A stretch of DNA of 64,000 nt, taken from contig OZ242008.1 in NCBI GenBank assembly GCA_965204735.1, positions 2,848,001-2,912,000 of the forward strand. The letters run 5' to 3'. How positions within the stretch are numbered: position 1 is the stretch's first letter; every line of letters begins with the position of its first letter. Positions 4,642 through 61,244 of this stretch are shown here, piece after piece. Position numbers and translations under genes: made by a program. Below the pieces are notes generated by a model. The model was not told where the DNA came from. It did no database searches and saw only the letters and a list, made by a program, of their open reading frames with translations. The stretch is from Longimicrobiales bacterium (lineage in GTDB: Bacteria > Gemmatimonadota > Gemmatimonadetes > Longimicrobiales > Gaopeijiaceae).

Positions 4642-4669
4642 CGCCAGCGACGAAAGAACGGAGGAGAGA

Positions 4670-4778
4670 CGCCATGAAGCTCAGGTTCGCCGAAGAAATC
4701 ATGCGTTGTCGGCCCCGGCGGCCGAGTCGGGGTTCGCGGGGGTCGCCATGAAGCTCAGGTTCGCCGAAGAAATCATGC
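4670..4778 (+). repeat. Perfect 35-bp direct repeat (4670-4704, 4744-4778) duplicating the start of the GPP34 gene
   Basis: CGCCATGAAGCTCAGGTTCGCCGAAGAAATCATGC occurs twice, 39 bp apart. Confidence 0.95.
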
Positions 4779-28695: not shown

Positions 28696-31600
28696 TCACC
28701 TGAACCGCAAGGCGCCCTGCAGGCCCAGTCGGCGGTCCGCGGGCTCGGCGCCGCCCGAGACCTCCTCGCCGAAGAGGTTGAGCGTCGCCGCTTCCAGCAC
28801 CGACAGCCGGACCCCCACGTTCAGCCGACGCCCCGAACCGCCCTCGACCGCCCAGCGCCCGAACGGCGCCATTCGCCCGCCGTCCGCCAGCACGATCGCG
28901 TAGTCCACCTCCATGTGGAGCCGGCTGGCGCTCGCGCGCTCGCTCGCAAGCGGCACGCCCCCCGCCTGCGCCGGCGACAGGGAACCGCCCAGCGGCACGC
29001 CGGGCGCGCCCGCTGCCGCTCCCTCCCGCCAGAGCGTCGCCACGCCGCTCGCCGCATTGCCCCAGCTCGGCTCGAGGGTGAACGACAACCCGCCCGCCTC
29101 GCCACTCGGCCGCAGACGCACCGCGACGCTTGCGCCCCACTCCCGGAACGACGACGCCTGATGCGCCACCAGCGCCCGGCCCCGCGCGTCCACGCTCAGC
29201 CCGATGCCCTCGTGCACGTAGCCGATCCCCGCGCCCGCCTCCGCGCCCGCGCCCGTCTCCGCGTCGCCACCGTCGAAGCGCGCGCCCACCTCCACCTGCG
29301 AAGCAATCGACGACCCGCCCGACAGCCCCCAGCGCCCCACGACCTCGGACGCCACGCGCAACCGGCGCACGTTCGCCACGACGCCCGCCAACCCCTCCGC
29401 CTCGTCGGCATCGGTGCGCACCTCGAAAGCGTCCGCCTTCACGGCCAGCACGCCCGTCAGCCGCTGGCGCACGCCCGCCGCCGTCATCGCCATCCCCATG
29501 CCCGTCTCGTACCGGCGGCGCGTCGCGTCCTCCGACAGCGCCGCCGTCCCCCGGCCCGCACCGACCAGCCCCCACACGCTCAACCCCGCGCGCGGCGACC
29601 ACTGCGCGTACGGGTACAAGCTCGTCAGGCGCGCGTCCACCGTGCCCGTGCCGTTGATCCCGCTCTCGAAGCCGATCAAGCTCGTCGTTCGCGACAGCGC
29701 CAAGCCCACCAGCGGCCCCGCCCCGAACCGGTAGTCGGCGCCCAGGTACGCCGAGCGCACCGTGCCGTCCAGCGCAAGGTCGTCTTCGGGCCGGCCCTCG
29801 AAGCCGCCGGCGCTGGCTCGGCCCCAGAACGTCCACCCGCCGGGCGCCGCCTGCGCGCCGCCGGCGGCGCCTGCGCCCGGCGAGAACCGGAACGACGACC
29901 GCGTGAGCAGCTCGTCGCGCGTCACGGGGTCCATGGCGACCAGCCGACCCCAGCGGGGACGGTCGCCGCGCCCGCCCGTGGCGCCGAGGCCCGAGGCCCG
30001 GCCGCCCGTGGCGCCGAAGCCGCCCTGTCCGCCCAAGCTACCCGTAGTGCCCAAGCCGCCCTGTGCGCCGAAGCTGCCGGCGGCGCCGATCTGGGCCGAT
30101 CGTCCGAAGGCGTCCGCCAGCCCGCGCAGTGCGCCCGCGTCGTGGCCTCCCTTCGCAGCCGCCCGCAGCGCCGACGCGAGGCTGCCCGCTCCGTGCGACG
30201 GCCGCACGCCGAGCAGCCCGGCGGCCTGCCTGGCCAGCTCCTGCAGGTCGCAGCGCTCCGCGGCGCCGACGCACGAAAGCGACCGGCCGCCGACTTGAAG
30301 ATGCGCCGCGCCCATCGCGCCCATTGCAGTGGGATCGTCCGCCGCGCCCAGCCGTCCGCCGATCGCTTCCACCGTCTCCGTGCCCACGCTCCGACCGAAG
30401 GCGGCCAGCGAGCGCTTCAGGATGCGGGCGCGGTCCGCACGCGACGCCTCGACCGTCACCAAGAAGCTCTGCTCGGCTTCCGCCCCCTCGGGGTCGACCG
30501 CCCTCACCGTCACGGTGGACTGGCCCACCGCCGCCGCATGGATCGTCAAGACGCCGCCTTCCTCGTCCACTCGCACCGACCGCGGCGTCGCCGAAGCCGC
30601 GAAGTACCGGAGCTCGTCGCCGTCGGGATCGCGGAAGTGCGCCGACAAGTCGACGACGGCCGGCGGACTCGCCACCTCCATCGTCTTCGGCGCGATCTCC
30701 GACACCACTTCCGGCGCTCGATTCTCCTCCGCCGCGACGTCGCCGGCCGCTCGGCTCCCGTCCACCTTGTGCGCCGCGCTCGTCGGCACCGAGTCGTGCG
30801 TCAGAACGGCCGCCGCCGTGTCGCCCGGCGCCGTGAGCGTGCTGCCGTTCAGCTCCAATGCGTTCGCCGCGATGCTCAGCCCGTCCGCGTCCCGGTCGCC
30901 CGCCTGCACCACGTACGTGAAGCCGTAGCTTGGCCGCGCGCCCGGAGCGCCGAGGTACGTCGCGTGCCGCGTCGAGTCCCCCACCTGCAACGCGATCCGC
31001 GGCCGCCCGCCGACCGTGTCCACCGAAGCACTTCGGTCGAAGTCCACCACCACCACAACTTGCTCGCCGCGCAGGTACGTGTCGCCGCTCGCCGGGGCGT
31101 TCAACCACACCCAGCGCACATGTGGAGCGCCCGTCCGACCGCCGTCCACCTTGAAGGCCGAGTCCGCCGCCACCGGCGCGTGCGACAGGTCCGCCGACAC
31201 CGTGTCGTCCGGCGCCGTGATCGAACCGCCGTTCAGCTCCAATGCGTCGGCCGCGACGCTCAGCCCGTCGGCGTCCCGGTCGCTCGCCTGCACCACGTAC
31301 TTGAACACCTGTCGCGCCGGCGTATTCGTGAACTGATGCGAGTAGGTCGCGTGCCGCGTCGAGTCCCCGATCTCGAGGGCGATCCGCGGCCGGCCTCCCG
31401 TCGTGTCCACGGCAACGGCTCGGTCGAAGTGCACGCTCGCGTAGAGCACTTCGCCCCGCGTGTACGTGCTGTCCCGCGACGGAGGCGGACCGACGGCCAA
31501 CCACTGCACCTTCGCGGCTCTCGCTCGGCTCCCGTCCACCTTGTGCGCCGCGCTCGTCGGCACCGAGTCGTGCGTCAGAACGGCCGCCGCCGTGTCGCCC

Positions 31601-34600
31601 GGCGCCGTGAGCGTGCCGCCGTTCAGCTCCAATGCGTTCGCCGCGATGCTCAGCCCGTCCGCGTCCCGGTCGCCCGCCTGCACCACGTACGTGAAGCCGT
31701 AGCTCGGCCGCGCGCCCGGAGCGCCGAGGTACGTCGCGTGCCGCGTCGAGTCCCCCACCTGCAACGCGATCCGCGGCCGCCCGCCGACCGTGTCCACCGA
31801 AGCGCTTCGGTCGAAGTCCACCACCACCACAACTTGCTCGCCGCGCAGGTACGTGTCGCCGCTCGCCGGGGCGTTCAACCACACCCAGCGCACATGTGGA
31901 GCGCCCGTCCGACCGCCGTCCACCTTGAAGGCCGAGTCCGCCGCCACCGGCGCGTGCGACAGGTCCGCCGACACCGTGTCGTCCGGCGCCGTGATCGAAC
32001 CGCCGTTCAGCTCCAATGCGTCGGCCGCGACGCTCAGCCCGTCGGCGTCCCGGTCGCTCGCCTGCACCACGTACTTGAACACCTGTCGCGCCGGCGTATT
32101 CGTGAACTGATGCGAGTAGGTCGCGTGCCGCGTCGAGTCCCCGATCTCGAGGGCGATCCGCGGCCGGCCTCCCGTCGTGTCCACGGCAACGGCCCGGTCG
32201 AAGTGCACGCTCGCGTAGAGCACTTCGCCCCGCGTGTACGTGCTGTCCCGCGACGGAGGCGGACCGACGGCCAGCCACTGCACTTCTGCAACTCCCGCTC
32301 GGCTGCCGTCCACCTTGTGCGCCGCGCTCGTCGGCACCGTGGCGCGCGTCAGAACGGCAGCCGTCGTGTCCCCCGGCGCCGTGATCGTGCCGCCGTTCAG
32401 CTCCACCGCGTTGGACCCGATGCTCAGCCCGTCCGTGTCCGTGTCCCCAGCCCGCACCACGTAGCCAAATCTGATGTGCGCTTGCGCGCGTGAAGGGCCC
32501 AGGTACGTCGCGTACCGCGTCGAGTCCCCCACCTGCAACGCGATCCGCGGCCGTCCTCCGACCGTGTCCACCGACGCGACACGATCGAAGCCGATCGTCA
32601 CCTCGATCCGCTCGCCTCGAAGGTACGTGTCCCCCTTCACCGGAGCGTTGAACGCCGCCCATCGCACGTGCGGAGCACCCACGCGGCCGCCGTCCACCTT
32701 GTGTCCCGTCGGAAACAGCCCGATGTGCGACAGCACCGCGGGCGTAGTGTCGCCCAGCAGGGTGATCGAGCCGCCGTTCGCCGACAACCCGTTCGCCTTG
32801 ATGCTGACGCCGTCCGCGTCCCGGTCTCCTGCCTGCACGACGTAAACGAACAGCAACTCCCAAGGTCTGCCACGAGGGGGACCCCGGTACGTCGCATACC
32901 GCGTCGAATCCCCGATCTCCAGCGCGACCCGGGGCCGGCCTCCCGTCGTGTCCACCGCCACGTCCCTGTCGAAGGACACCCCCACCAAGAACGTCTCGCC
33001 TCGCGTGTACGTGTCGCCGCCCGACGGGGGCGGGCCGATGGAGGTCCGCAGCACCTTCGGCGCCTGAACGCTTTGCCCGTCCACCTTTCGTTGCGGATCG
33101 GCCGGCACCGAATCATGCGACAGGGCTGCATGGATGCTCGTGTCGGCCGCCGACCGGATCGTCGCTCCGCTCGGCAGCGACAATGCGTTCGCCGGAAAGC
33201 TGATGCCGTCTGCGTCCATGTCCGCCGCCTGCACGACGTACTCGAACGTCAGCGGCCCTCGCCCTCCGTACTCGTCGGCGACCAGCTGCCGTGTACCCGT
33301 CCCCACGTTCATCGTCAGCCGCGGCCTGCCCGTCACACGCACGTCCACGTTAAAGTAGACCGACGCCTCTATGCGCTCGTTCCACGTGTACGTGTTGCCG
33401 CTTGCCGGCGGATCGTCGGTCAACGTGACCACGGGTCGGGGAGTCGGCTTCACGCTCCCGTTCACTCTGCGGCTGCTGTCGGCCGGAAGCCCTCCATGGT
33501 CCAGCCTCGCCCGCGTCACGCCGTCCGAGTCCGCCTTCAGCATGCCGCCGTTCAGGCTCAACGCGCCCTTCGGCACCCGCACGCCGTCCGAGTCCATCGC
33601 CCCACGCCCCACCACATACGTAAATAGAAGCGCACTGCCCCCCATCCGAAGCCTCCAGCTCGACCGCACCTGCACCGTGTCCGTCCCCACTTCCAGCGAC
33701 ACCCACGCCCTATCGTCCAAAATCAACTTCTGATCAAAGCGCGCCAGTATCCGTATCCGCTCTCCGAATCCGTACACGCCCGCCGACGGCGGGACGCTCG
33801 AAGGCGGATCGTAGAACTCCAGGCTCGTGATCCGTGGCCTGCCGTCCACCTTTCTCGCCGGGTCGGCCCTGACGCCCCCGTGGGCGAGGACCGCATTGGT
33901 GGCGCTGTCGGCGTCGCTCGTGATCGTCCCGCCGTTCAGGCGCAAGGCGTTGGCCGCGATGCTCGCGCCGCCGGGAGCCAGGTCGCCTGCCTGCACTGCA
34001 TACGAGAACGTCAGCCGCGTCCGCGTCCCTGGCCGATCGGACAGCGTCGCTTGCCTGGCGCCCCCGCCGATCTTCAACGTCAAGCTTGGCGTTCCGCCCG
34101 TCGTGCTCACCAACACGCGACGGTCGAAGGCGACCCTGGCCTGGATCATCTCGCCGTAGCCGTAGGTGCCGCCACTGGCGGGCGAGTTGCTGAACGTCAC
34201 GCTGCGCACCCTCGGCGGCCGGTACTTGCTGCCGTCCACCTTGCGTGACGCGCCGCCCGCCGCCGAGTCGTGGGCAATGTTCGCGTGGGCCGAAGTATCG
34301 TTCTGCGCAGTGATCCGCGCGCCGTTCAGCTTCAAGCCGCTCGCAGGAACGCTCACGCCGTCGCCGTCGAAGTCGTCCGCCTGAACCCGGTACCGGAAGT
34401 CCAAGTAGTTCTGCCTCTTGGAGCCGAATTCGGCTCGCCGAGTCGTCGTGCCGATGGTCAGATCCAGATAGGGCTTGCCGCCCTTTGTGCTCAGCGCGAC
34501 GTGCTGCGTGAAGAACACGCGCACCCGCACCACTTCGTCCCGATAGTACGTGCTGTCGCCGTCCGCCAAGCCGCGGAAGTTGAACCGCTGCACGGTCAGC

Positions 34601-37600
34601 GCCGACGACTGGGCGCCAACCACCGCCCCGGTTGCCAAACCGCCCTCCGCATCGTCTTCTTGATGCATCGAGACCGCCGTTGCGTCCTCCGAAAGCGTTT
34701 CCCGCTCGGCGTCAAAGTCTCCAGCGTCGCCAATCGACGGCGTTTCGCTGCTTGCCGCATCCACTGCCTCCGGGTCCCCGTCGGCGTCCAGCCCGTCGGC
34801 CTCCAAGCCGCATTCGAGCAACTCGACCTGGGCCGTGAAGCTCAAGGTCGCCGAGTCCCCGTCCGCGTCCGTCGCCGTGTAGCGGTAGGTGGTGACCGGC
34901 TGCTCCCGCTCGGGCGTGCCGGCTATCGTCCGACGCCCGGCATCGAACGCCAGCCCCAGAGGCAGCGCGGGCGCCAGCCCGTACGTCAGAGGCGCGTCGC
35001 CCCCCTCGGCCGCAGGCAGCTGCACGGCCCGGATCTCGCAGGCCCGGACCCAGCGCTGCGCCGGAACCACCGCGTCGCCGAACGAAGGCGCCAGGTCTTC
35101 GCCGTCGTCGTCCACGATCGTGCCGGCGATCAGCGCCGTGGATACCGCCAGCAGCGACGAATCGGTGGCAGACAGCCGCAGAACCACGGTCTCGTCGAGT
35201 TCCTGAAGCGTGTCCCCCAGGACCATCACGTCGATCGACTTCGTCGTCTCCCCCGGCTCGAAGAAGAGGGTGTCCGGCACAACTTCCTCGTAGTCGGCGC
35301 CCGACGTGGCCGTGCCCGTGCCAGCGTCGGCGTAGTACAGCGCCAAGCCGCGGCCGCTGGGGCGGTCCAGCGCAAGCGTGAACGTCAGGCGCCGGCCCTC
35401 GCCGTTGCCCTCTTCGACCGAAGGCGAGTCGCCCGAAAGGGTCGGCGCGTCGTCGTCGTCCACGATCGTGCCCACGCCCCTTGCGCCGCCGTTCGGAAGG
35501 TCCGCGTTGACCGGGCCGGCCAGCGCCAGCACGATCGTCTCGACCGGCTCGTCCAGCGCGTCGCCCCTCACCGTCACTTCCACCGTCTGGGCCGTGTCGC
35601 CCGCGGCGAACACCACCGTGCCGGGCATCACCGCGTCGTAGTCGCCGCCGGGCGTCGCCGTGCCCGTGCCGGCGTCTGCGTACCGGACCGTCACCTGCCT
35701 GGCCGACGGCGCGCTGAGCGACACCGTGAAGGAGAGGGCGACCGCCTCTCCGGGCCCAGGTTCGCGGACCGTGGCCGAGTCGATCGACACGGTCGGCCTG
35801 GACCCGTCGTCGTCCACGATCGTGCCCGTCACCCTCCTGCTGGCCAGCTCGGCGTTCGTCGCGCCGCTCAGTGCCAGAACCACCGTCTCGTCGTCCTCGA
35901 CCTCGTCGTCACCCCGCACCGTGACGCTCACCGTCTTGAGCGTCTCGCCCGGCTCGAACGTCAGCGTATCTGCTTCGATCGCCGCGTAGTCCACGCCCGC
36001 CGTCGCCGTCCCGCTGCCCGCATCCGCGTACGCCACCGTCACACGAGACGCCGACGACGGCGCCAGCCACACCTCGAACTCCAGCGCCGCCTCGGCACCC
36101 GCGCCGCCCTCGACCGCGCTCGTCCCGCCCGCAGCCAGCGTCGGCCCCTGCGGCCGGTACCGGCTGCCGTCCACCTTCCGCGACGGTCCACCCTCCGCCG
36201 CGCCATGCGCCACGTCCGCCTCGACCGTGCCGTCCTGCGTCGTGACCCGCCCCCCGTTCAGCTTCAGCCCGTTCGCCGGAACGCCCACGCCGTCGCCGTC
36301 GAAGTCGTCCGCCTGCACACGATACTCGAACTGCAGCCGCCGGTTGTCCGGCGAAGCGACGAGCCCGGCCCGCCGAGTCGCCGCGCCCACCGTCAGCTCG
36401 ACGTACGGCCTGCCTCCCGCCACGTCCGCCGCGATCGGCTGCGTGAACACCACGCGCACACGCACCGCCTCGCCCAGGTAGTACGTGCTGTCGCCCTCCG
36501 CCAAGCCGACGAAGAGGACCCGCTGCACCGACGGCGCCGGCGGAGGCGGAGGAGGCGCCTCGTCGTCGTCCACGATCGTCCCCGTCGCCGTCGCCGTCGC
36601 CAGCTCGGCGCCGCTCGCGCCGCTCAGCGCCAGAACCACCGTCTCGTCGTCCTCGACCTCGTCGTCGCCCCGCACCGTCACGCTCACCGTCTGCACCGTG
36701 TCGCCCGGCTCGAACGTCAGCGCGCCCGCCTCGATCTCCGCGTAGTCCACCCCCGCCGTCGCCGTCCCGCTCCCCGCGTCCGCGTACCCCACCGTCACGC
36801 GGTCCGCCGACGCCGGCGCCAGCCGCACCTCGAACTCGAGCGCCGTCTCGGCGCCCGCGCCGCCCTCGACCACGCTCGTCCCGCCCGCAGCCAGCGTCGG
36901 CCCCTGCGGCCGGTACCGGCTGCCGTCCACCTTCCGCGACGGTCCACCCTCCGCCGCGCCGTGGGCCACGTCCGCCTCGACCGTGCCGTCCTGCGTCGTG
37001 ACCCGCCCCCCGTTCAGCTTCAGCCCGTTCGCCGGAACGCCCACGCCGTCGCCGTCGAAGTCGTCCGCCTGCACACGATACTCGAACTGCAGCCGCCGGT
37101 TGTCCGGCGAAGCGACGAGCCCGGCCCGCCGAGTCGCCGCGCCCACCGTCAGCTCGACGTACGGCCTGCCTCCCGCCACGTCCGCCGCGATCGGCTGCGT
37201 GAACACCACGCGCACACGCACCGCCTCGCCCAGGTAGTACGTGCTGTCGCCCTCCGCCAAGCCGACGAAGAGGACCCGCTGCACCGACGGCGCCGGCGGA
37301 GGCGGAGGAGGCGCCTCGTCGTCGTCCACGATCGTCCCCGTCGCCGTCGCCGTCGCCAGCTCGGCGCCGCTCGCGCCGCTCAGCGCCAGAACCACCGTCT
37401 CGTCGTCCTCGACCTCGTCGTCGCCCCGCACCGTCACGCTCACCGTCTGCACCGTGTCGCCCGGCTCGAACGTCAGCGTGCCCGCCTCGATCTCCGCGTA
37501 GTCCACCCCCGCCGTCGCCGTCCCGCTCCCCGCGTCCGCGTACCCCACCGTCACGCGGTCCGCCGACGCCGGCGCCAGCCGCACCTCGAACTCGAGCGCC

Positions 37601-39714
37601 GTCTCGGCGCCCGCGCCGCCCTCGACCACGCTCGTCCCGCCCGCAGCCAGCGTCGGCCCCTGCGGCCGATACCGGCTGCCGTCCACCTTCCGCGACGGTC
37701 CACCCTCCGCCGCGCCGTGCGCCACGTCCGCCTCGACCGTGCCGTCCTGCGTCGTGACCCGCCCCCCGTTCAGCTTCAGCCCGTTCGCCGGAACGCCCAC
37801 GCCGTCGCCGTCGAAGTCGTCCGCCTGCACACGATACTCGAACTGCAGCCGCCGGTTGTCCGGCGAAGCGACGAGCCCGGCCCGCCGAGTCGTCGCGCCC
37901 ACCGTCAGCTCGACGTACGGCCTGCCTCCCGCCACGTCCGCCGCGATCGGCTGCGTGAACACCACGCGCACACGCACCGCCTCGCCCAGGTAGTACGTGC
38001 TGTCGCCCTCCGCCAAGCCGACGAAGAGGACCCGCTGCACCGACGGCGCCGGCGGAGGCGGAGGAGGCGCCTCGTCGTCGTCCACGATCGTCCCCGTCGC
38101 CGTCGCCGTCGCCGTCGCCAGCTCGGCGCCGCTCGCGCCGCTCAGCGCCAGAACCACCGTCTCGTCGTCCTCGACCTCGTCGTCGCCCCGCACCGTCACG
38201 CTCACCCTCTGCACCGTGTCGCCCGGCTCGAACGTCAGCGCGCCCGCCTCGATCTCCGCGTAGTCCACCCCCGCCGTCGCCGTCCCGCTCCCCGCGTCCG
38301 CGTACCCCACCGTCACGCGGTCCGCCGACGCCGGCGCCAGCCGCACCTCGAACTCGAGCGCCGTCTCGGCGCCCGCGCCGCCCTCGACCACGCTCGTCCC
38401 GCCCGCAGCCAGCGTCGGCCCCTGCGGCCGATACCGGCTGCCGTCCACCTTCCGCGACGGTCCCCCCTCCGCCGCGCCGTGGGCCACGTCCGCCTCGACC
38501 GTGCCGTCCTGCGTCGTGACCCGCCCCCCGTTCAGCTTCAGCCCGTTCGCCGGAACGCCCACGCCGTCGCCGTCGAAGTCGTCCGCCTGCACACGGTACT
38601 CGAACTGCAGCCGCCGGTTGTCCGGCGAAGCGACGAGCCCGGCCCGCCGAGTCGTCGCGCCCACCGTCAGCTCGACGTACGGCCTGCCTCCCGCCACGTC
38701 CGCCGCGATCGGCTGCGTGAACACCACGCGCACACGCACCGCCTCGCCCAGGTAGTACGTGCTGTCGCCCTCCGCCAAGCCGACGAAGAGGACCCGCTGC
38801 ACCGACGGCGCCGGCGGAGGCGGAGGAGGCGCCTCGTCGTCGTCCACGATCGTCCCCGTCGCCGTCGCCGTCGCCAGCTCGGCGCCGCTCGCGCCGCTCA
38901 GCGCCAGAACCACCGTCTCGTCGTCCTCGACCTCGTCGTCGCCCCGCACCGTCACGCTCACCCTCTGCACCGTGTCGCCCGGCTCGAACGTCAGCGCGCC
39001 CGCCTCGATCTCCGCGTAGTCCACCCCCGCCGTCGCCGTCCCGCTCCCCGCGTCCGCGTACCCCACCGTCACGCGGTCCGCCGACGCCGGCGCCAGCCGC
39101 ACCTCGAACTCGAGCGCCGTCTCGGCGCCCGCGCCGCCCTCGACCACGCTCGTCCCGCCCGCAGCCAGCGTCGGCCCCCGCGGCCGGTACCGGCTGCCGT
39201 CCACCTTCCGCGACGGCCCCCCCTCCGCCGCGCCGTGCGCCACGTCCGCCGCAACCGTGCCGTCCTGCGTCGTGACGCGCCCCCCGTTCAGCTTCAGCCC
39301 GTTCGCCGGAACGCCCACGCCGTCGCCGTCGAAGTCGTCCGCCTGCACACGGTACTCGAACTGCAGCCGCCGGTTCGCCGGCGAAGCGACGAGCTCGGCG
39401 CGCCGAGTCGTCGCGCCCACCGTCAGCTCGACGTACGGCCTGCCTCCCGCCACGTCCGCCGCGATCGGCTGCGTGAACACCACGCGCACACGCACCGCCT
39501 CGCCCAGGTAGTACGTGCTGTCGCCCTCCGCCAAGCCGACGAAGAGAATCCGTTGCACGCCGGGCGTCTGGGCTTCGGCTCCCGACGGCGCCGCACCGAT
39601 CAACGCCGGCAAGAAGGCTGTGACGAGAGCGAGACGAATCCACGCCGTGCTAAGGCGTCTAGGGCCACAAGCGTCCGGGTAGGCCGCTGTGGCCGCTGTG
39701 GCCGTTCCGTTCAC
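28696..39714 (-). CDS. Giant (3672 aa) repeat-rich surface adhesin: Calx-beta and Ig-like domains with C-terminal autotransporter-type beta-barrel
   Basis: Signal peptide (AEA-Q); 7 Calx-beta repeats (GTATAGVDY..LTF.PG....VSV.V.GD..E.DET); He_PIG-like and DPDGD cadherin-like modules; barrel with LGADY, YPY, penultimate F. Confidence 0.9.
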   Translation of the reverse strand: MNGTATAATAAYPDACGPRRLSTAWIRLALVTAFLPALIGAAPSGAEAQTPGVQRILFVGLAEGDSTYYLGEAVRVRVVFTQPIAADVAGGRPYVELTVGATTRRAELVASPANRRLQFEYRVQADDFDGDGVGVPANGLKLNGGRVTTQDGTVAADVAHGAAEGGPSRKVDGSRYRPRGPTLAAGGTSVVEGGAGAETALEFEVRLAPASADRVTVGYADAGSGTATAGVDYAEIEAGALTFEPGDTVQRVSVTVRGDDEVEDDETVVLALSGASGAELATATATGTIVDDDEAPPPPPPAPSVQRVLFVGLAEGDSTYYLGEAVRVRVVFTQPIAADVAGGRPYVELTVGATTRRAGLVASPDNRRLQFEYRVQADDFDGDGVGVPANGLKLNGGRVTTQDGTVEADVAHGAAEGGPSRKVDGSRYRPQGPTLAAGGTSVVEGGAGAETALEFEVRLAPASADRVTVGYADAGSGTATAGVDYAEIEAGALTFEPGDTVQRVSVTVRGDDEVEDDETVVLALSGASGAELATATATATGTIVDDDEAPPPPPPAPSVQRVLFVGLAEGDSTYYLGEAVRVRVVFTQPIAADVAGGRPYVELTVGATTRRAGLVASPDNRRLQFEYRVQADDFDGDGVGVPANGLKLNGGRVTTQDGTVEADVAHGAAEGGPSRKVDGSRYRPQGPTLAAGGTSVVEGGAGAETALEFEVRLAPASADRVTVGYADAGSGTATAGVDYAEIEAGTLTFEPGDTVQTVSVTVRGDDEVEDDETVVLALSGASGAELATATATGTIVDDDEAPPPPPPAPSVQRVLFVGLAEGDSTYYLGEAVRVRVVFTQPIAADVAGGRPYVELTVGAATRRAGLVASPDNRRLQFEYRVQADDFDGDGVGVPANGLKLNGGRVTTQDGTVEADVAHGAAEGGPSRKVDGSRYRPQGPTLAAGGTSVVEGGAGAETALEFEVRLAPASADRVTVGYADAGSGTATAGVDYAEIEAGALTFEPGDTVQTVSVTVRGDDEVEDDETVVLALSGASGAELATATATGTIVDDDEAPPPPPPAPSVQRVLFVGLAEGDSTYYLGEAVRVRVVFTQPIAADVAGGRPYVELTVGAATRRAGLVASPDNRRLQFEYRVQADDFDGDGVGVPANGLKLNGGRVTTQDGTVEADVAHGAAEGGPSRKVDGSRYRPQGPTLAAGGTSAVEGGAGAEAALEFEVWLAPSSASRVTVAYADAGSGTATAGVDYAAIEADTLTFEPGETLKTVSVTVRGDDEVEDDETVVLALSGATNAELASRRVTGTIVDDDGSRPTVSIDSATVREPGPGEAVALSFTVSLSAPSARQVTVRYADAGTGTATPGGDYDAVMPGTVVFAAGDTAQTVEVTVRGDALDEPVETIVLALAGPVNADLPNGGARGVGTIVDDDDAPTLSGDSPSVEEGNGEGRRLTFTLALDRPSGRGLALYYADAGTGTATSGADYEEVVPDTLFFEPGETTKSIDVMVLGDTLQELDETVVLRLSATDSSLLAVSTALIAGTIVDDDGEDLAPSFGDAVVPAQRWVRACEIRAVQLPAAEGGDAPLTYGLAPALPLGLAFDAGRRTIAGTPEREQPVTTYRYTATDADGDSATLSFTAQVELLECGLEADGLDADGDPEAVDAASSETPSIGDAGDFDAERETLSEDATAVSMHQEDDAEGGLATGAVVGAQSSALTVQRFNFRGLADGDSTYYRDEVVRVRVFFTQHVALSTKGGKPYLDLTIGTTTRRAEFGSKRQNYLDFRYRVQADDFDGDGVSVPASGLKLNGARITAQNDTSAHANIAHDSAAGGASRKVDGSKYRPPRVRSVTFSNSPASGGTYGYGEMIQARVAFDRRVLVSTTGGTPSLTLKIGGGARQATLSDRPGTRTRLTFSYAVQAGDLAPGGASIAANALRLNGGTITSDADSATNAVLAHGGVRADPARKVDGRPRITSLEFYDPPSSVPPSAGVYGFGERIRILARFDQKLILDDRAWVSLEVGTDTVQVRSSWRLRMGGSALLFTYVVGRGAMDSDGVRVPKGALSLNGGMLKADSDGVTRARLDHGGLPADSSRRVNGSVKPTPRPVVTLTDDPPASGNTYTWNERIEASVYFNVDVRVTGRPRLTMNVGTGTRQLVADEYGGRGPLTFEYVVQAADMDADGISFPANALSLPSGATIRSAADTSIHAALSHDSVPADPQRKVDGQSVQAPKVLRTSIGPPPSGGDTYTRGETFLVGVSFDRDVAVDTTGGRPRVALEIGDSTRYATYRGPPRGRPWELLFVYVVQAGDRDADGVSIKANGLSANGGSITLLGDTTPAVLSHIGLFPTGHKVDGGRVGAPHVRWAAFNAPVKGDTYLRGERIEVTIGFDRVASVDTVGGRPRIALQVGDSTRYATYLGPSRAQAHIRFGYVVRAGDTDTDGLSIGSNAVELNGGTITAPGDTTAAVLTRATVPTSAAHKVDGSRAGVAEVQWLAVGPPPSRDSTYTRGEVLYASVHFDRAVAVDTTGGRPRIALEIGDSTRHATYSHQFTNTPARQVFKYVVQASDRDADGLSVAADALELNGGSITAPDDTVSADLSHAPVAADSAFKVDGGRTGAPHVRWVWLNAPASGDTYLRGEQVVVVVDFDRSASVDTVGGRPRIALQVGDSTRHATYLGAPGARPSYGFTYVVQAGDRDADGLSIAANALELNGGTLTAPGDTAAAVLTHDSVPTSAAHKVDGSRARAAKVQWLAVGPPPSRDSTYTRGEVLYASVHFDRAVAVDTTGGRPRIALEIGDSTRHATYSHQFTNTPARQVFKYVVQASDRDADGLSVAADALELNGGSITAPDDTVSADLSHAPVAADSAFKVDGGRTGAPHVRWVWLNAPASGDTYLRGEQVVVVVDFDRSASVDTVGGRPRIALQVGDSTRHATYLGAPGARPSYGFTYVVQAGDRDADGLSIAANALELNGSTLTAPGDTAAAVLTHDSVPTSAAHKVDGSRAAGDVAAEENRAPEVVSEIAPKTMEVASPPAVVDLSAHFRDPDGDELRYFAASATPRSVRVDEEGGVLTIHAAAVGQSTVTVRAVDPEGAEAEQSFLVTVEASRADRARILKRSLAAFGRSVGTETVEAIGGRLGAADDPTAMGAMGAAHLQVGGRSLSCVGAAERCDLQELARQAAGLLGVRPSHGAGSLASALRAAAKGGHDAGALRGLADAFGRSAQIGAAGSFGAQGGLGTTGSLGGQGGFGATGGRASGLGATGGRGDRPRWGRLVAMDPVTRDELLTRSSFRFSPGAGAAGGAQAAPGGWTFWGRASAGGFEGRPEDDLALDGTVRSAYLGADYRFGAGPLVGLALSRTTSLIGFESGINGTGTVDARLTSLYPYAQWSPRAGLSVWGLVGAGRGTAALSEDATRRRYETGMGMAMTAAGVRQRLTGVLAVKADAFEVRTDADEAEGLAGVVANVRRLRVASEVVGRWGLSGGSSIASQVEVGARFDGGDAETGAGAEAGAGIGYVHEGIGLSVDARGRALVAHQASSFREWGASVAVRLRPSGEAGGLSFTLEPSWGNAASGVATLWREGAAAGAPGVPLGGSLSPAQAGGVPLASERASASRLHMEVDYAIVLADGGRMAPFGRWAVEGGSGRRLNVGVRLSVLEAATLNLFGEEVSGGAEPADRRLGLQGALRFR
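30749..32296 (-). repeat. Two near-identical 774-bp tandem units inside the adhesin gene
   Basis: Identical shadow ORFs at 31016 and 31790 (offset 774); boundaries approximate. Confidence 0.9.
35807..39560 (-). repeat. Five near-identical 756/762-bp tandem units inside the adhesin gene
   Basis: Recurrent shadow ORFs at 36227, 36983, 37739, 38501, 39257 (offsets 756, 756, 762, 756); boundaries approximate. Confidence 0.93.
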
Positions 39715-56578: not shown

Positions 56579-57901
56579 TCACGCGGCCCCTGCCGTCGCC
56601 TCGTGGTCGAGCGCCTCTTGGGCGGGGGTCGCGCTTCCGCTGCCGACGGCGCGCCGCAGGACCTGCTCGATGTCCAGTCCCAGGACCGACGCCAACCCCT
56701 CCATCGTTCCGTAGGCGCCGCGGACGCGCTGGTTGAGGGCGTTGGAGACGCCGTCGCCCTCGCCCCCGTCCATGACCACCACCCGGTCGATGTCCACGCC
56801 CCTGACCGCGCCCACCGCCGTCTCCAGCAGCTCCGGCAGCTTCTCGGCCATGAAAACGGCGAAGGCGGCGTCGCCGCCGGCCCGCACTTCCGCGTACAGC
56901 CGCCGCAGCACCTCGACCTGGGCCTTCCCCCGCTCCAGGATCGGGGCGGCTTCGGCCTCGGCCCGGGCGAAGGCGGCCATCTTCTCGGCCTTGGCGGGCT
57001 CCACCACGTCGGCCCGGAGCCGCTGCTCCTCGCGCTCGACCCGCTTCTCCTCCAAGACCCTCTCGGCTTCGACCTCGGCCTCGGCGGCGCGTACCCGGGC
57101 GATCTTCTCGGCGGTCACGCCCTCCTGGTCCAGCTCGGCTTGGCGCACCCGCAGCGCGTTGCGGGCCTCGGACACCTTGATCGACGCGCCGGCTTCCCGC
57201 ACCTCGGCTCTCTGGCGGGCCTCGGCCTGGGCTTCCCGGGTATCGGCCTCCGCTTGAGCTTCGGCGATCTCGGCCTGGCGGATCGCCTCTGCCGACTTCT
57301 TGCGGCCGATCGCCTCGAGGTAGCCCCGCTCGTCGCTGACGTTCTGAATCTTCAGCACGTCCAGATGGAAGCCCAACGAGGCCAAGTCCTCGCCCGCGTC
57401 CTCGGACAGCGCCTTGGCGAAGCCCAGCCGGTCCTCGTTGACCGCTTCCGGGGTCATGGTGGCCAGGACGCCCCGCAGGTTGCCGGTAAGGGTGTCCTGG
57501 GCCAGCAGGCGCACTTCCTCCTCCGACTTGCCCAGCAGTCGCTCGACCGCGTTGTTGAAGACCCACTCGGGCTCGGAAGCGACCTTCACGTTGGCGATCG
57601 CTTCCACGTTCAGCGGAATGTTCCCCTTGGAGAAGGCGTTCTTGACCATCACCTCGATAGGGATCGTCTCCAGGTTGACGTGCTGCACCGTCTCGATGAT
57701 CGGGACGCGAAAGGTGCGCCCGCCGCTGATCGATCGATAGCCGACGGCCTGCCCGTCGGCGAGCTTGCGCCTGCGGCCCGTGAGGACGGCAGCTCGGTTC
57801 GGCGGCACGATGACGATGAGCTTCTTGACGGTCGTGATCAGCACGACCACGACCATCAGGACGATGGCGGCCACGACGGCGGCGGGGATCAGGTTCTCCA
57901 T
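56579..57901 (-). CDS. Flotillin / SPFH domain protein
   Basis: N-terminal TM, GGR.F..P..E, L.GNLRGVLA, IQ..SD..GYL.A.G, EA-rich coiled coil. Confidence 0.9.
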   Translation of the reverse strand: MENLIPAAVVAAIVLMVVVVLITTVKKLIVIVPPNRAAVLTGRRRKLADGQAVGYRSISGGRTFRVPIIETVQHVNLETIPIEVMVKNAFSKGNIPLNVEAIANVKVASEPEWVFNNAVERLLGKSEEEVRLLAQDTLTGNLRGVLATMTPEAVNEDRLGFAKALSEDAGEDLASLGFHLDVLKIQNVSDERGYLEAIGRKKSAEAIRQAEIAEAQAEADTREAQAEARQRAEVREAGASIKVSEARNALRVRQAELDQEGVTAEKIARVRAAEAEVEAERVLEEKRVEREEQRLRADVVEPAKAEKMAAFARAEAEAAPILERGKAQVEVLRRLYAEVRAGGDAAFAVFMAEKLPELLETAVGAVRGVDIDRVVVMDGGEGDGVSNALNQRVRGAYGTMEGLASVLGLDIEQVLRRAVGSGSATPAQEALDHEATAGAA

Positions 57902-57958: not shown

Positions 57959-58519
57959 TCACTCTTCCAGCAGCTTCACGTCCACGGGCGCCACGGCGGC
58001 CACGCCGTCCTTCATCTCGACGACCACGACCTGCCGGCCTTGGGCCAGTCCCTCGGCGTCCCGGTACGCATCGTCTACGCGGGCTCGGACGCGAATCCTT
58101 CTGTCGCCGCGCGCCACGTGCACGAAGCCGGGGCTGCCGGGGCCCACCTCGAGGGCGACTTTTCCCGTGAGCCCCACGAGCGACTCTTCGCCGGGAATGA
58201 ACCCGGTCTCGGTGCGTCGCAGGTAGCCGAACGCGGCGCTGACGATCGCGCCTGCGGCCAAGCCGGTCGCGCCGGCGATCAAGGCGGTGGCGCCGGTCCG
58301 GGATCCGTCCCAGAGAAGGTGAAGGGCCGTCCCAGCCGCCCCGAAGCCGAAGACGGCGTAGACCAGGGTGCGGAGCGAGAGGATCGCCGATGCGTCGCCG
58401 AACGAGTCGGCGTCCACGTCGGCGGAGACATCCGCGTCGCCGTCCAGGAAGTCGCCGAAGAGCGAGAGGCCCAGGAGGCCGCCCCCGACGGCAAGGCATG
58501 CGACGTATGCGGTCAGCAT
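57959..58519 (-). CDS. NfeD-like (YqiJ/YuaF-type) membrane protein
   Basis: AGGAGG RBS; TM helices plus C-terminal LVG..G.V...G.V OB fold; canonical partner upstream of flotillin. Confidence 0.8.
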   Translation of the reverse strand: MLTAYVACLAVGGGLLGLSLFGDFLDGDADVSADVDADSFGDASAILSLRTLVYAVFGFGAAGTALHLLWDGSRTGATALIAGATGLAAGAIVSAAFGYLRRTETGFIPGEESLVGLTGKVALEVGPGSPGFVHVARGDRRIRVRARVDDAYRDAEGLAQGRQVVVVEMKDGVAAVAPVDVKLLEE

Positions 58520-58577: not shown

Positions 58578-58760
58578 CCCACGCCGGCTTTCGCGGGGGA
58601 AACGTACTTGCGACATGGACGGCGGCGCGACGGGCAACGTGACCTACCAGCCCACGCCGGCTTTCGCGGGGGAAAACGTACTTGCGACGGGCGGGGCCAA
58701 CTCGGCCGCCAGCCGCGCCTCCGCCCCACGCCGGCGTTCGGGGGGAAACGTACTTGCGAC
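58578..58760. CRISPR. Orphan CRISPR-like mini-array: 3 repeats (37/38/36 bp) and 2 spacers (36 bp each)
   Basis: CCCACGCCGGCTTTCGCGGGGGAAACGTACTTGCGAC at 58578-58614, 58651-58688, 58725-58760; unique equal-length spacers; no cas gene in the window. Confidence 0.65.
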
Positions 58761-58775
58761 CCGTCGCCGGAGACA

Positions 58776-58871
58776 GGGAGCGGCAGTGCGGCGCAAGGCG
58801 GCGGAACGCTCGGGCGCGAGGCCGGGAGCGGCGGTGCGGCGCAAGGAGACGGAGCGCTCGGGCGCGAGGCC
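58776..58871 (+). repeat. Imperfect 48-bp tandem duplication
   Basis: GGGAGCGGC(A/G)GTGCGGCGCAAGG..CGG..CGCTCGGGCGCGAGGCC at 58776 and 58824. Confidence 0.85.
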
Positions 58872-59108: not shown

Positions 59109-61244
59109 GTGAAGGCTGGTACTGCGTGTGCGCCGGCGGCAGTGGCGACCGTCGCCGCGAAGGCCGGTGGGCGCCGCGTTCGACGGAGCGTCTTCGCGGC
59201 CGCTTGCGTCGCCGCGTCGCTTGCCCCTGTGGTGGCGGTCCGGGCCCAGCAGGGCGCCGTCGGCGGAGAGTGGCGCCACTATGGCGGCGGCCCAGGCAAT
59301 ACGCGCTACGCGCCCCTGGACCAGATCGACCGGACCAACGTCGGGTCGCTGGAAGTCGCCTGGCGGTGGAAGGCCGCCAACTACGGTCCGGCGCCCGAGT
59401 TCAACTACCGGACCACGCCCCTCATGGTGGACGGCGTGCTGTACGCCACGGCAGGCTACCGGCGGGTCGTGGCCGCAATCGACGCAGGAACCGGCGAGAC
59501 GCTCTGGACGTACCGCCTGGACGAGGGAGACCGCTCGGCACCGCGGCGCAACTCGGGGAGAGGCGTGGCGTACTGGGACCCGCGGCGGGCCGGGGCGGAC
59601 GGCGCCCGAGCGGCCGGCGCCGAACCGATCGAGACCGAGACGGGCGCCGGGGTCCGGCCCGGGACCAGCGCCGGGGCCGAGCCCTTCGCCCGTCCTCGCA
59701 TCTTCCTCGTCACGCCGGGGTTCCACCTGGTGGCGCTGGACGCGGCCACCGGGAGGCCGGTCGAAGGCTTCGGCGAGCGCGGGGTAGTGGACCTTCGGCT
59801 GGAGCTGGGAAGGGAGATCGACTTGGAGGACGCGCCGATCGGGTCCAGCTCGCCGCCGGCGGTGGCAGGGAGCGTGGTCGTGGTGGGCTCGGCGCTGCCG
59901 TCGGGGGGCGCGCCGCCTTCGCCGGAGATGCCGCCGGGCCACGTGCGGGGGTACGACGCGGCGACGGGCGAGCGCCTTTGGACCTTCCACACCATTCCCC
60001 AGCCCGGCGAGTTCGGCCACGAGACGTGGGAGGAGGACTCGTGGGAGTACACGGGCAACGCGGCCGTGTGGACCGCCATCAGCGTCGACCCGGCGCTGGG
60101 TCTGGTCTACCTGCCCGTGGAAGCGGGCACCGGCGACTACTACGGCGGCCATCGGCCCGGCGACAACCTCTTTTCCCAGAGCCTGGTCGCCCTCGACGCG
60201 GCCACCGGAGAGCGCGCCTGGCACTTCCAGACCGTTCACCACGGCATCTGGGACTACGACCCGCCGGCGGCGCCCGTCCTGGCCGACTTGGTGGTGGAGG
60301 GGCGCCCGGTGCCGGCGGTGGCCCAGATCACCAAGCAGACCTTCACCTTCGTGCTCGACCGGCGGACCGGCGAGCCCCTGTGGCCCGTCGAGGAGCGTCC
60401 CGTGCCCCAGACCGACGTGCCCGGCGAGCGCACGTCGCCCACGCAGCCCTTTCCCACCAAGCCCCCGCCCTTCGACCGGCAGGGCGTGGACCCCGACGAC
60501 CTGATCGACTTCACCCCCGAACTGCGCGCCGAAGCGGAAGAGATCCTCGCCCAGCTGCGATGGGGGCCCTTGTACACGCCCCCGTCGGTGGCGGAGGAAG
60601 GCGGCGCCCAAGGCACCCTCATGGTCCCCGGCTCCTTGGGAGGCGCCAACTGGCCCGGCGGAGCGTTCGACCCCGAGTCCGGCTACCTCTTCGTCCAGTC
60701 GGCGACCCACCCCAGCGTGATCTCCCTGGTTCGCGACCCCGAGCTCTCGTCCATGAACTACGTGCGCGGCGGCGGGCTGCGGCTGCGGCGCGGCGGCGGC
60801 CCCCAGGGGCTGCCCCTATTCAAGCCGCCTTGGGGGCGGATCACGGCCCTCGACCTCAACGTCGGCGAGATCGCGTGGCAAGTCCCCAACGGCGACGCCC
60901 CCGAGTACGTGCGGGAGCATCCGGCGCTGGAAGGAGTGGACGTGGGAAGGACCGGCCGCCAGGACCGGGGCGGGCTCCTGGTCACCCGTACCCTGCTCTT
61001 CGCCGGCGAAGGCGGGGGGATGTACGCGGCCTCGGGGTCGGGAGGAAGGATGCTGCGGGCTCACGACAAGGCGACGGGCGAGGTCGTGGCCGAGATCGAG
61101 CTGCCGGCCAACCAGACGGGCCTGCCCATGACCTACATGCACGAGGGGCGGCAGTTCGTGGTGGTGGCGGTGGGGGCGCCCCGGCGGCCGGGGGAGCTGG
61201 TGGCGCTGTCGTTGCCGGGGAGAACCGGCGCCGGAGGGAGCTGA
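59109..61244 (+). CDS. PQQ-dependent dehydrogenase (glucose/quinate dehydrogenase-like, soluble)
   Basis: W..YGG....RY.PL.QI...NV..L..AW, TPL.VDG.LY, RGVAYW, WHFQ.VHH..WDYD, GGANW.G, KPPWG, PMTY; start uncertain. Confidence 0.9.
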   Translation: MKAGTACAPAAVATVAAKAGGRRVRRSVFAAACVAASLAPVVAVRAQQGAVGGEWRHYGGGPGNTRYAPLDQIDRTNVGSLEVAWRWKAANYGPAPEFNYRTTPLMVDGVLYATAGYRRVVAAIDAGTGETLWTYRLDEGDRSAPRRNSGRGVAYWDPRRAGADGARAAGAEPIETETGAGVRPGTSAGAEPFARPRIFLVTPGFHLVALDAATGRPVEGFGERGVVDLRLELGREIDLEDAPIGSSSPPAVAGSVVVVGSALPSGGAPPSPEMPPGHVRGYDAATGERLWTFHTIPQPGEFGHETWEEDSWEYTGNAAVWTAISVDPALGLVYLPVEAGTGDYYGGHRPGDNLFSQSLVALDAATGERAWHFQTVHHGIWDYDPPAAPVLADLVVEGRPVPAVAQITKQTFTFVLDRRTGEPLWPVEERPVPQTDVPGERTSPTQPFPTKPPPFDRQGVDPDDLIDFTPELRAEAEEILAQLRWGPLYTPPSVAEEGGAQGTLMVPGSLGGANWPGGAFDPESGYLFVQSATHPSVISLVRDPELSSMNYVRGGGLRLRRGGGPQGLPLFKPPWGRITALDLNVGEIAWQVPNGDAPEYVREHPALEGVDVGRTGRQDRGGLLVTRTLLFAGEGGGMYAASGSGGRMLRAHDKATGEVVAEIELPANQTGLPMTYMHEGRQFVVVAVGAPRRPGELVALSLPGRTGAGGS

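Follow-up and report, generated by a model that had tools for sequence, protein, structure and literature searches.

Why should a short CRISPR-like array with a repeat of unfamiliar type stand by itself among housekeeping genes? The array lies in a stretch of 64,000 nt (the window) from a Longimicrobiales bacterium whose genome, here G000, is 4.14 Mb long, in one contig and 98% complete. Its three repeats are 89–97% identical, and the two spacers of 36 nt each that separate them are unrelated to one another (11/36 identical). The edge of the array is 58 bp from the start codon (58519) of an NfeD-like ORF, which has a weak match to PF01957 (E 0.044) and precedes a Band-7/flotillin gene; the gene of a PQQ dehydrogenase is divergent from these two. 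The first-pass annotation had described the same three repeats, two unrelated spacers and neighboring genes, and its coordinates, lengths and placement were confirmed. The features of the locus are, in window coordinates:

56579–57901, minus strand: flotillin / Band-7 gene
57959–58519, minus strand: NfeD-like membrane protein gene, 186 aa, first in the operon, its putative promoter bearing the array
58578–58614: repeat copy 1, 37 nt, taken as duplicated native promoter DNA
58601–58606, minus strand: -10-like hexamer within repeat copy 1, 87 nt from the nfeD start
58615–58650: spacer (insert) 1, 36 nt, invariant in 4 of 4 runs, no source found
58651–58688: repeat copy 2, 38 nt, with an A run one A longer
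58689–58724: spacer (insert) 2, 36 nt, invariant in 4 of 4 runs, no source found
58725–58760: repeat copy 3, 36 nt, ungapped against the single copy in genome G003 over its final 17 nt and on into the right flank
58761–58781: native right flank, orthologous to G003 by alignment
58768–58773: decayed counterpart of a -35-like hexamer conserved in relatives, a putative promoter element
58770–58865: separate head-to-tail 48-nt duplication in the same intergenic region, outside the array
59112–61244, plus strand: PQQ-dependent dehydrogenase gene, divergent, start approximate

The reading that best accounts for this locus, with a probability of roughly 85%, is that it is a natural neo-CRISPR: 37 bp of the nfeD-flotillin promoter would stand in three copies after two off-target integrations by Cas1-Cas2. 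This integrase attaches a spacer to the two strands of its target at points separated by one repeat length, and repair of the cuts leaves the intervening DNA duplicated. At this promoter, a Cas1-Cas2 of the host would have inserted a 36-nt spacer by staggered attack, with duplication of 37 bp of native DNA; a second spacer integrated at the same site would have produced the third repeat copy, and the copies would then have drifted by slippage in runs of G or A and by exchange with one another. The locus is filed as a neo-CRISPR on the strength of its geometry, of empty sites and of self-derived inserts, while a likeness of the target to a host repeat was not found here.

The repeat was reported as unfamiliar. 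In Rfam no family reached gathering level (three chance matches, E 4–7), no exact copy was present in viral contigs, and the repeat was absent from all 26 GTDB stretches and 105 metagenome stretches examined. Across 201 genomes of the family it gave scattered single matches with 1–2 mismatches, at about the control rate. In G000 it is confined to one locus, the next-best BLAST matches being 12–20 nt long. It looks unfamiliar because, on the neo-CRISPR reading, it was duplicated from the host's own promoter.

An orthologous site with a single copy points the same way. Among three other genomes of the genus (G001, G002 and G003), only G003 has the nfeD/PQQ junction, and there the array is absent: one repeat-like copy stands at the orthologous place, continuous with its flank. 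In this one comparator genome for the site, the single copy aligns without gaps to repeat 3 plus the flank at 27 of 38 positions (13/17 in the repeat and 14/21 in the flank); the right flank alone is significant (14/21, binomial p 2.5e-4), and the 5' half gives a gapped, only moderately significant alignment (p 0.008–0.03; for the left flank with repeat 1, p 0.015–0.03). On the nfeD strand, the G003 sequence reads as two hexamers with 15 nt between them, the first -35-like and the second -10-like and 55 nt ahead of the start. The motif TTC(A/G)CC-N7-11-CGGCAA, or a close variant, occurs 54–58 nt from the nfeD start in G003 and at three loci of another genus, that is, in 4 of the 27 upstream regions examined, where about 0.0008 would be expected per 130 nt. 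A -10-like TAnnnT is found 25–65 nt upstream in 11 of 21 relatives, which are not independent of one another (shuffle mean 3.5, maximum 10 in 2000). The nfeD junction with a PQQ gene adjacent was found at 8 other loci in other genera, among 31 searched. Since the motif is common to G003 and another genus at the same distance, the single copy is judged from these alignments to be the ancestral state and the repeat to be native promoter DNA. The conservation suggests a promoter role for the duplicated DNA; a consensus promoter scan found no sigma-70 site.

A palindrome in the G003 sequence was tried as a LexA box and rejected, as its motif is absent upstream of recA and lexA and shows no genomic excess (74 occurrences, against 69 and 58 in controls). 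A different, TTCGG-type motif is common to the regions upstream of recA and lexA in G000 (L374, L376) and to L373 and L375 in G003; it is repeated upstream of lexA and may be the LexA operator of the lineage.

The genome has two CRISPR-Cas loci, about 0.8 Mb from the array, and both carry effector and adaptation genes. The type I-E locus has a 29-nt repeat and a period of 61; the type I-G locus has a Cas4/1 fusion, a 37-nt repeat, periods mostly of 72–79 and spacers mostly of 35–42 nt. The repeat of the mini-array resembles the two host repeats no more than random DNA does (p 0.23–0.75; against I-G, 14/37, p 0.15–0.23), and neither flank of the array resembles the I-G leader. Near 2079400–2079600 of contig C1 of G000, the I-E array has an interruption at its end, a segment containing short direct repeats and resembling an insertion-sequence end.

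The geometry of these systems recurs throughout the genome. Beyond the two arrays, the G000 genome contains 91 non-tandem direct-repeat pairs at periods of 40–130, each pair with its own repeat sequence. There are 25 pairs at periods 59–62 and 50 at periods 71–75, with the remaining 16 spread over the other 82 periods, so that 75 of the 91 lie at periods matching the geometry of the host I-E and I-G systems. Because some of these 75, a loose set, are false positives of coding or tandem kind, a strict set was defined in which the duplication had to be within 3 nt of 29 or 37; it contains 42 sites, 15 of the shorter and 27 of the longer kind. The mini-array is outside this set because its indels split it in the scan. 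Copies within the class range from 89 to 100% identity, which implies events of differing age. Coding-like ORFs make up 72% of the genome, yet 28 of the 42 inserts fall outside them; of the other 14, 10 are in frame. Such a pattern would be expected from the purging of harmful insertions.

The two size classes differ in their targets. Sites with periods of 59–62 resemble the host I-E repeat (14.7 matches, compared with 12.7 in nearby DNA; n = 15, p 4e-6), while for sites with periods of 71–75 no resemblance to the host I-G repeat was seen (15.4 matches against 15.5; n = 27, p 0.59). The peak of the longer scar class is at period 72, and that of the native I-G array at 74.

Some of the inserted DNA came from the host itself. 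Five of the 42 inserts match host DNA elsewhere with 1–4 mismatches, and in four of them the match stops at the ends of the insert, compared with no bounded match in 42 controls. A first version of this test, without the boundary rule, had given no separation (7 of 57 inserts, 5 of 40 random stretches), and five self-derived inserts are too few for a PAM to be read. The neo-inserts had no match among the spacers of the native arrays (best local score 15 or less).

Clean empty sites were seen in sister genomes for two other units, one at C1:3472469 (empty in G001) and the other within the window:

4668–4778: second unit in the window, a 37-nt duplication (4668–4704, 4742–4778) around a 37-nt insert, empty in G001 and G003

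This second unit spans the probable start codon of a GPP34-family gene. Among nine site/genome pairs in which both flanks were found, there were no filled sister sites; besides the two cleanly empty sites, seven further pairs were uninformative.

Nor is the repeated use of a site peculiar to the mini-array, since four further loci hold two different inserts among three copies. The spacings are 72 and 76 nt at C1:1622775, 61 and 60 at 3057434, 61 and 61 at 3584604, and 61 and 75 at 1112980, the last as if both integrases had used one site. One insert at C1:1622775 matches host DNA at about 2380412. Five repeat-insert-repeat candidates lie within about 5 kb at C1:2255507–2260720, a possible hotspot, and at C1:574973 and C1:2106837 a whole repeat-plus-insert was later duplicated in tandem, giving a near-identical insert twice.

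A difference between the genomes counts against the neo-CRISPR reading. In 400 kb sampled from each of G001, G002 and G003 (1.2 Mb in all) there were no scars, where 12 would be expected at the G000 rate; this is in spite of the Cas1 genes of G001, which has an I-E-like Cas1, and G003, which like G000 has Cas4/1. Four period-72 matches in G001 were considered as scars and rejected, being leucine-rich-repeat-like coding repeats of 49–55 nt. Loss of IHF/HU was also rejected as the cause of the scars, as each of the four genomes has two genes of the HU/IHF family.

Within the neo-CRISPR reading, the integrase is taken to be the type I-G Cas4/1-Cas2, at about two in three, because it is the only resident integrase of the right geometry (a 37-bp repeat, for an array of 37 + 36 nt). 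It may instead have been an integrase since lost, as the sites have no I-G sequence likeness and the peak of their class is at 72 and not 74. Lacking a leader, hairpin, effector and target, the unit probably has no guide function; an array with neither leader nor cognate effector would probably make no guide RNA. Such inertness would explain why self-derived inserts are tolerated at other sites. The likelier effect would be on the promoter, which would now have three -10-like hexamers and, if the promoter in copy 3 were used, about 147 extra nt of 5' leader.

Two descriptions in the first-pass annotation did not hold. It had drawn a hairpin in the repeat, and six foldings were no better than shuffles (z 0.27–1.07). 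Nor is the third repeat the most degenerate once other strains are compared, as its G at position 12 recurs in runs X7 and X11, in both repeat 1 and repeat 2. The annotation had also found the spacers to read like fragments of GC-rich genes; their all-G/C third positions are real, and yet are weak evidence of a coding origin, occurring also in 32% of random genomic 36-mers and 23% of shuffles. Its statement that the window lacks cas genes was borne out for the 66 ORFs selected for comparison with PADLOC, from 240 ORFs of at least 80 aa.

Searches for the sources of the spacers were negative. Against plasmids and phages, E was 0.6 or worse among the matches listed (25 for each); the first 17 nt of spacer 1 had 20 viral matches, all with 9–18 mismatches over 36 nt. 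The codon-degenerate patterns of the two spacers gave 0 and 0 matches, and spacer 1 had none in five relatives. In the host genome there was nothing better than 8–9 mismatches per 36 nt, and nothing better than 2 for the first 17 nt. Part of spacer 2 with 5 nt of repeat had a 33-nt, 3-mismatch match in 4 of 4 runs; it was treated as chance because the first 8 nt of the spacer are unmatched and the surroundings resemble the dehydrogenase gene of another organism.

Whole or in part, the stretch is carried by 15 of 20 listed sequencing runs, none of them an RNA run; those labelled by habitat are sponge or marine metagenomes. In all four runs examined, from four studies, the array is present with identical spacers. 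Across these runs, variant sites make up 11 of 111 nt in the repeats, 0 of 72 in the spacers and 19 of 407 in the intergenic flanks, and the strains of the array-bearing species differ by only about 0–2%. Many of the repeat variants fall in runs of G or A, and an identical change was found in two repeat copies at once in more than one strain, which suggests exchange between copies. Two of the observations that the first-pass annotation had set against its own proposals were thus made, in that the spacers are fixed in four of four other metagenomes and the searches found no targets for them; dispersed REP-like copies were not seen, the repeat being at a single locus.

The same data bear on whether an array that arose off target is now kept by selection, because it tunes expression of nfeD-flotillin or of the PQQ dehydrogenase or makes a functional small RNA. 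This is unlikely, and it would add to the neo-CRISPR origin and not exclude it. It is favored by the lower variation of the spacers than of the repeats (Fisher p 0.004), by the last 14 nt of every repeat copy being invariant in 4 of 4 runs, and by an array that has stayed uncollapsed in the runs from all four studies within what appears to be a promoter. On the other hand, the spacers are not significantly more conserved than the flanks (p 0.09), simple inheritance suffices among strains so similar, and there is the lack of a sigma-70 site in the promoter scan.

It is decidedly unlikely, too, that the array was caught at birth and is able to grow. Both adaptation modules would then act as a genome-wide insertional mutagen, and sites once hit would be hit again without a leader; a promoter would have been turned into a transcribed array with a type V-like scaffold, open to adoption by an effector of the TnpB/Cas12m type or kept as a promoter modifier. 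If this were true, new repeat families and type V-U systems could come out of host DNA in this way.

The scaffold in question is a likeness to the repeats of Cas12m (type V-M, V-U1). Arrays whose repeats share the last 10 nt with the mini-array occur in metagenomes and phages, and a metagenome scan for these 10 nt twice at a period of 70–77 returned 105 stretches. Of 29 loci picked as likely arrays from these stretches and two earlier pattern scans, 13 adjoin an effector ORF; ten such ORFs were tested and all are Cas12u1, one of them matching a solved Cas12m (E 9e-73). Repeats of the family show a strongly covarying stem and pseudoknot (97.9% of cells paired; 0 of 500 shuffles), the same form as in solved Cas12m complexes, as these are described in the parts of PMC10442227 and PMC11013384 drawn on here. 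In repeat 1 the four invariant columns are present, with 6 of 6 pseudoknot positions in register and 2 of 3 pairs of the stem; the corresponding filter, set up post hoc, is passed by only 58 of 8.28 million genomic positions. Outside the 10 nt by which the loci were selected, repeat 1 has 13 of 18 matches (p 0.0016). One member of the bacterial family, G196, carries a Cas12m array with repeats of this kind. Furthermore, the 3' 28 nt of the mini-array repeat resemble Cas12m repeats more than a random site does, which counts against a neo-CRISPR. The array would on this evidence be a relic of a type V-M array that had lost its effector, or one captured by recombination into a look-alike promoter, and the G003 site would be collapsed or unoccupied.

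That origin is nevertheless very unlikely. A cas12m gene, intact or remnant, is absent from the single-contig genome of G000 and from G001, G002 and G003, and Cas12m is rare, with one in 300 genomes of the family and one in 350 of the phylum. (A Cas12m profile found 0 in 401 genomes of the order, which shows little, as it was run with no positive control.) Scored against 11 repeats that had not been selected by motif, repeat 1 had -8 bits over 36 nt; ten of these, held out, scored 20–40, and one mis-registered row -23. Its global similarity to Cas12m repeats is not significant (p 0.04–0.34), with only 2 of 8 identities in the 5' 8 nt. Repeats 2 and 3 of G000 are off register, with 3/6 and 4/6 pseudoknot positions at the copy-1 offset. 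Where the repeat departs from the Cas12m consensus it follows the G003 promoter, whose state is common to the outgroup. With dozens of neo-repeats in the genome, one look-alike is unsurprising, and 0 of 27 others pass the filter. Three things led to a Cas12m relic being dropped as the best reading, namely the empty site, the motif in the outgroup and the class of scars across the genome; the resemblance is probably coincidence, one look-alike among dozens of arbitrary 37-mers and the likeliest of them to attract notice.

The locus in G196 (L266), on the 2-kb contig C630, has four repeats in its array and the only Cas12m found in the 300 genomes of the family. In L237 (5000–7760) a cas12m gene stands between two arrays, one upstream and one downstream, with repeats that differ but covary.

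Ordinary slippage or tandem duplication, a REP-like element, or a guide array of a non-Cas system are together highly improbable. The genome has many tandem repeats, among them the 48-nt duplication next door, and for the 71–75 class Cas1-Cas2 is a putative agent. However, neither insert is related to the other or to the repeat, and the genome-wide periods fall on two CRISPR geometries, the shorter with the signature of the I-E repeat. A REP or dispersed element is contradicted by the single locus of the repeat, and no candidate partner gene for a non-Cas guide array was found adjoining it. The 48-nt duplication itself (58770–58865) has no recurrence elsewhere in the genome. Least probable of all is an array serving the host I-G or I-E Cascade in trans, or a regulatory CRISPR-like mini-array: both host systems have their genes and the lengths of repeat and spacer fit I-G, but the repeat is no nearer to the host repeats than random DNA, there is no stable Cas6 hairpin, and the spacers find no good match in the genome. 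The CRISPR-like anatomy proposed in the first-pass annotation thus stands, and a CRISPR integrase very probably made the unit, while the interpretations offered there, as a remnant or in-trans array, a regulatory mini-array or a non-Cas guide array, are not the best reading.

Orphan, or remnant, CRISPR arrays are short, have no cas genes nearby, and combine fixed spacers with drifting repeats. The mini-array shares all of these properties, but its repeat matches no array in G000 and is present as a single native copy in a sister species.

The closest precedent for the neo-CRISPR reading is off-target I-E integration in vivo in E. coli with over-produced Cas1-Cas2 (Nivala, Shipman and Church 2018, as cited in bioRxiv 10.1101/148544, PMC7054753), so far as the cited account describes it. 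In both cases a spacer-sized insert lies between repeat-sized duplications of non-CRISPR DNA, with no leader or cas genes and with a repeat specific to its site. The scars in G000, in contrast, are natural and fixed in a wild lineage, not induced by over-produced Cas1-Cas2; there are at least 42 sites, of I-E-like and I-G-like geometries, several of them extended twice and with empty alleles in sister genomes. Purified Cas1-Cas2 also integrates off target in vitro, as outlined in the portions of the reports used here for Pyrococcus furiosus (PMC6698737) and for the Thermotoga profunda III-A system without HU (PMC13769266). These reactions likewise use non-CRISPR targets at repeat-length spacing, with fidelity that depends on host factors. 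The off-target sites published for them resemble the CRISPR repeat (PMC6698737, in the part cited), which in G000 is true only of the I-E-sized class, and the number of HU/IHF-family genes is equal in G000 and its sisters.

With type V-M, as presented in the sections used of PMC10442227, PMC11013384 and bioRxiv 10.64898/2026.03.26.714355, the mini-array shares a 36–37-nt repeat, spacers of about 36 nt, the last 10 nt of one subfamily, and hexamers in copy 1 compatible with a pseudoknot. It differs in having no cas12m, a wrong 5' end and one wrong stem pair, two of three copies off register, and a repeat orthologous to promoter DNA, and it is not a member of this type.

Off-target integration is thus known from the laboratory, so far mainly from engineered E. 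coli and in vitro work, and the natural scale and the repeated extension of sites are the new part. One paper on neo-CRISPR calls its natural occurrence unclear, and no report of a natural genome-wide burden was found in a search that had most subscription journals outside its reach. In this genome, CRISPR memory-writing appears to act as a natural mutagen that is able to start new arrays. At least 42 fixed scars make it possible to test what CRISPR adaptation costs in mutations, how orphan arrays and new repeat sequences originate, and which targets the I-G Cas4/1 integrase prefers. They are also a warning that a short orphan array with an unfamiliar repeat can be host DNA, even one that resembles a known repeat family.

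Elsewhere in the window, an ORF of about 3,670 aa (28699–39714) with Calx-beta and Ig-like repeats probably encodes a surface adhesin.
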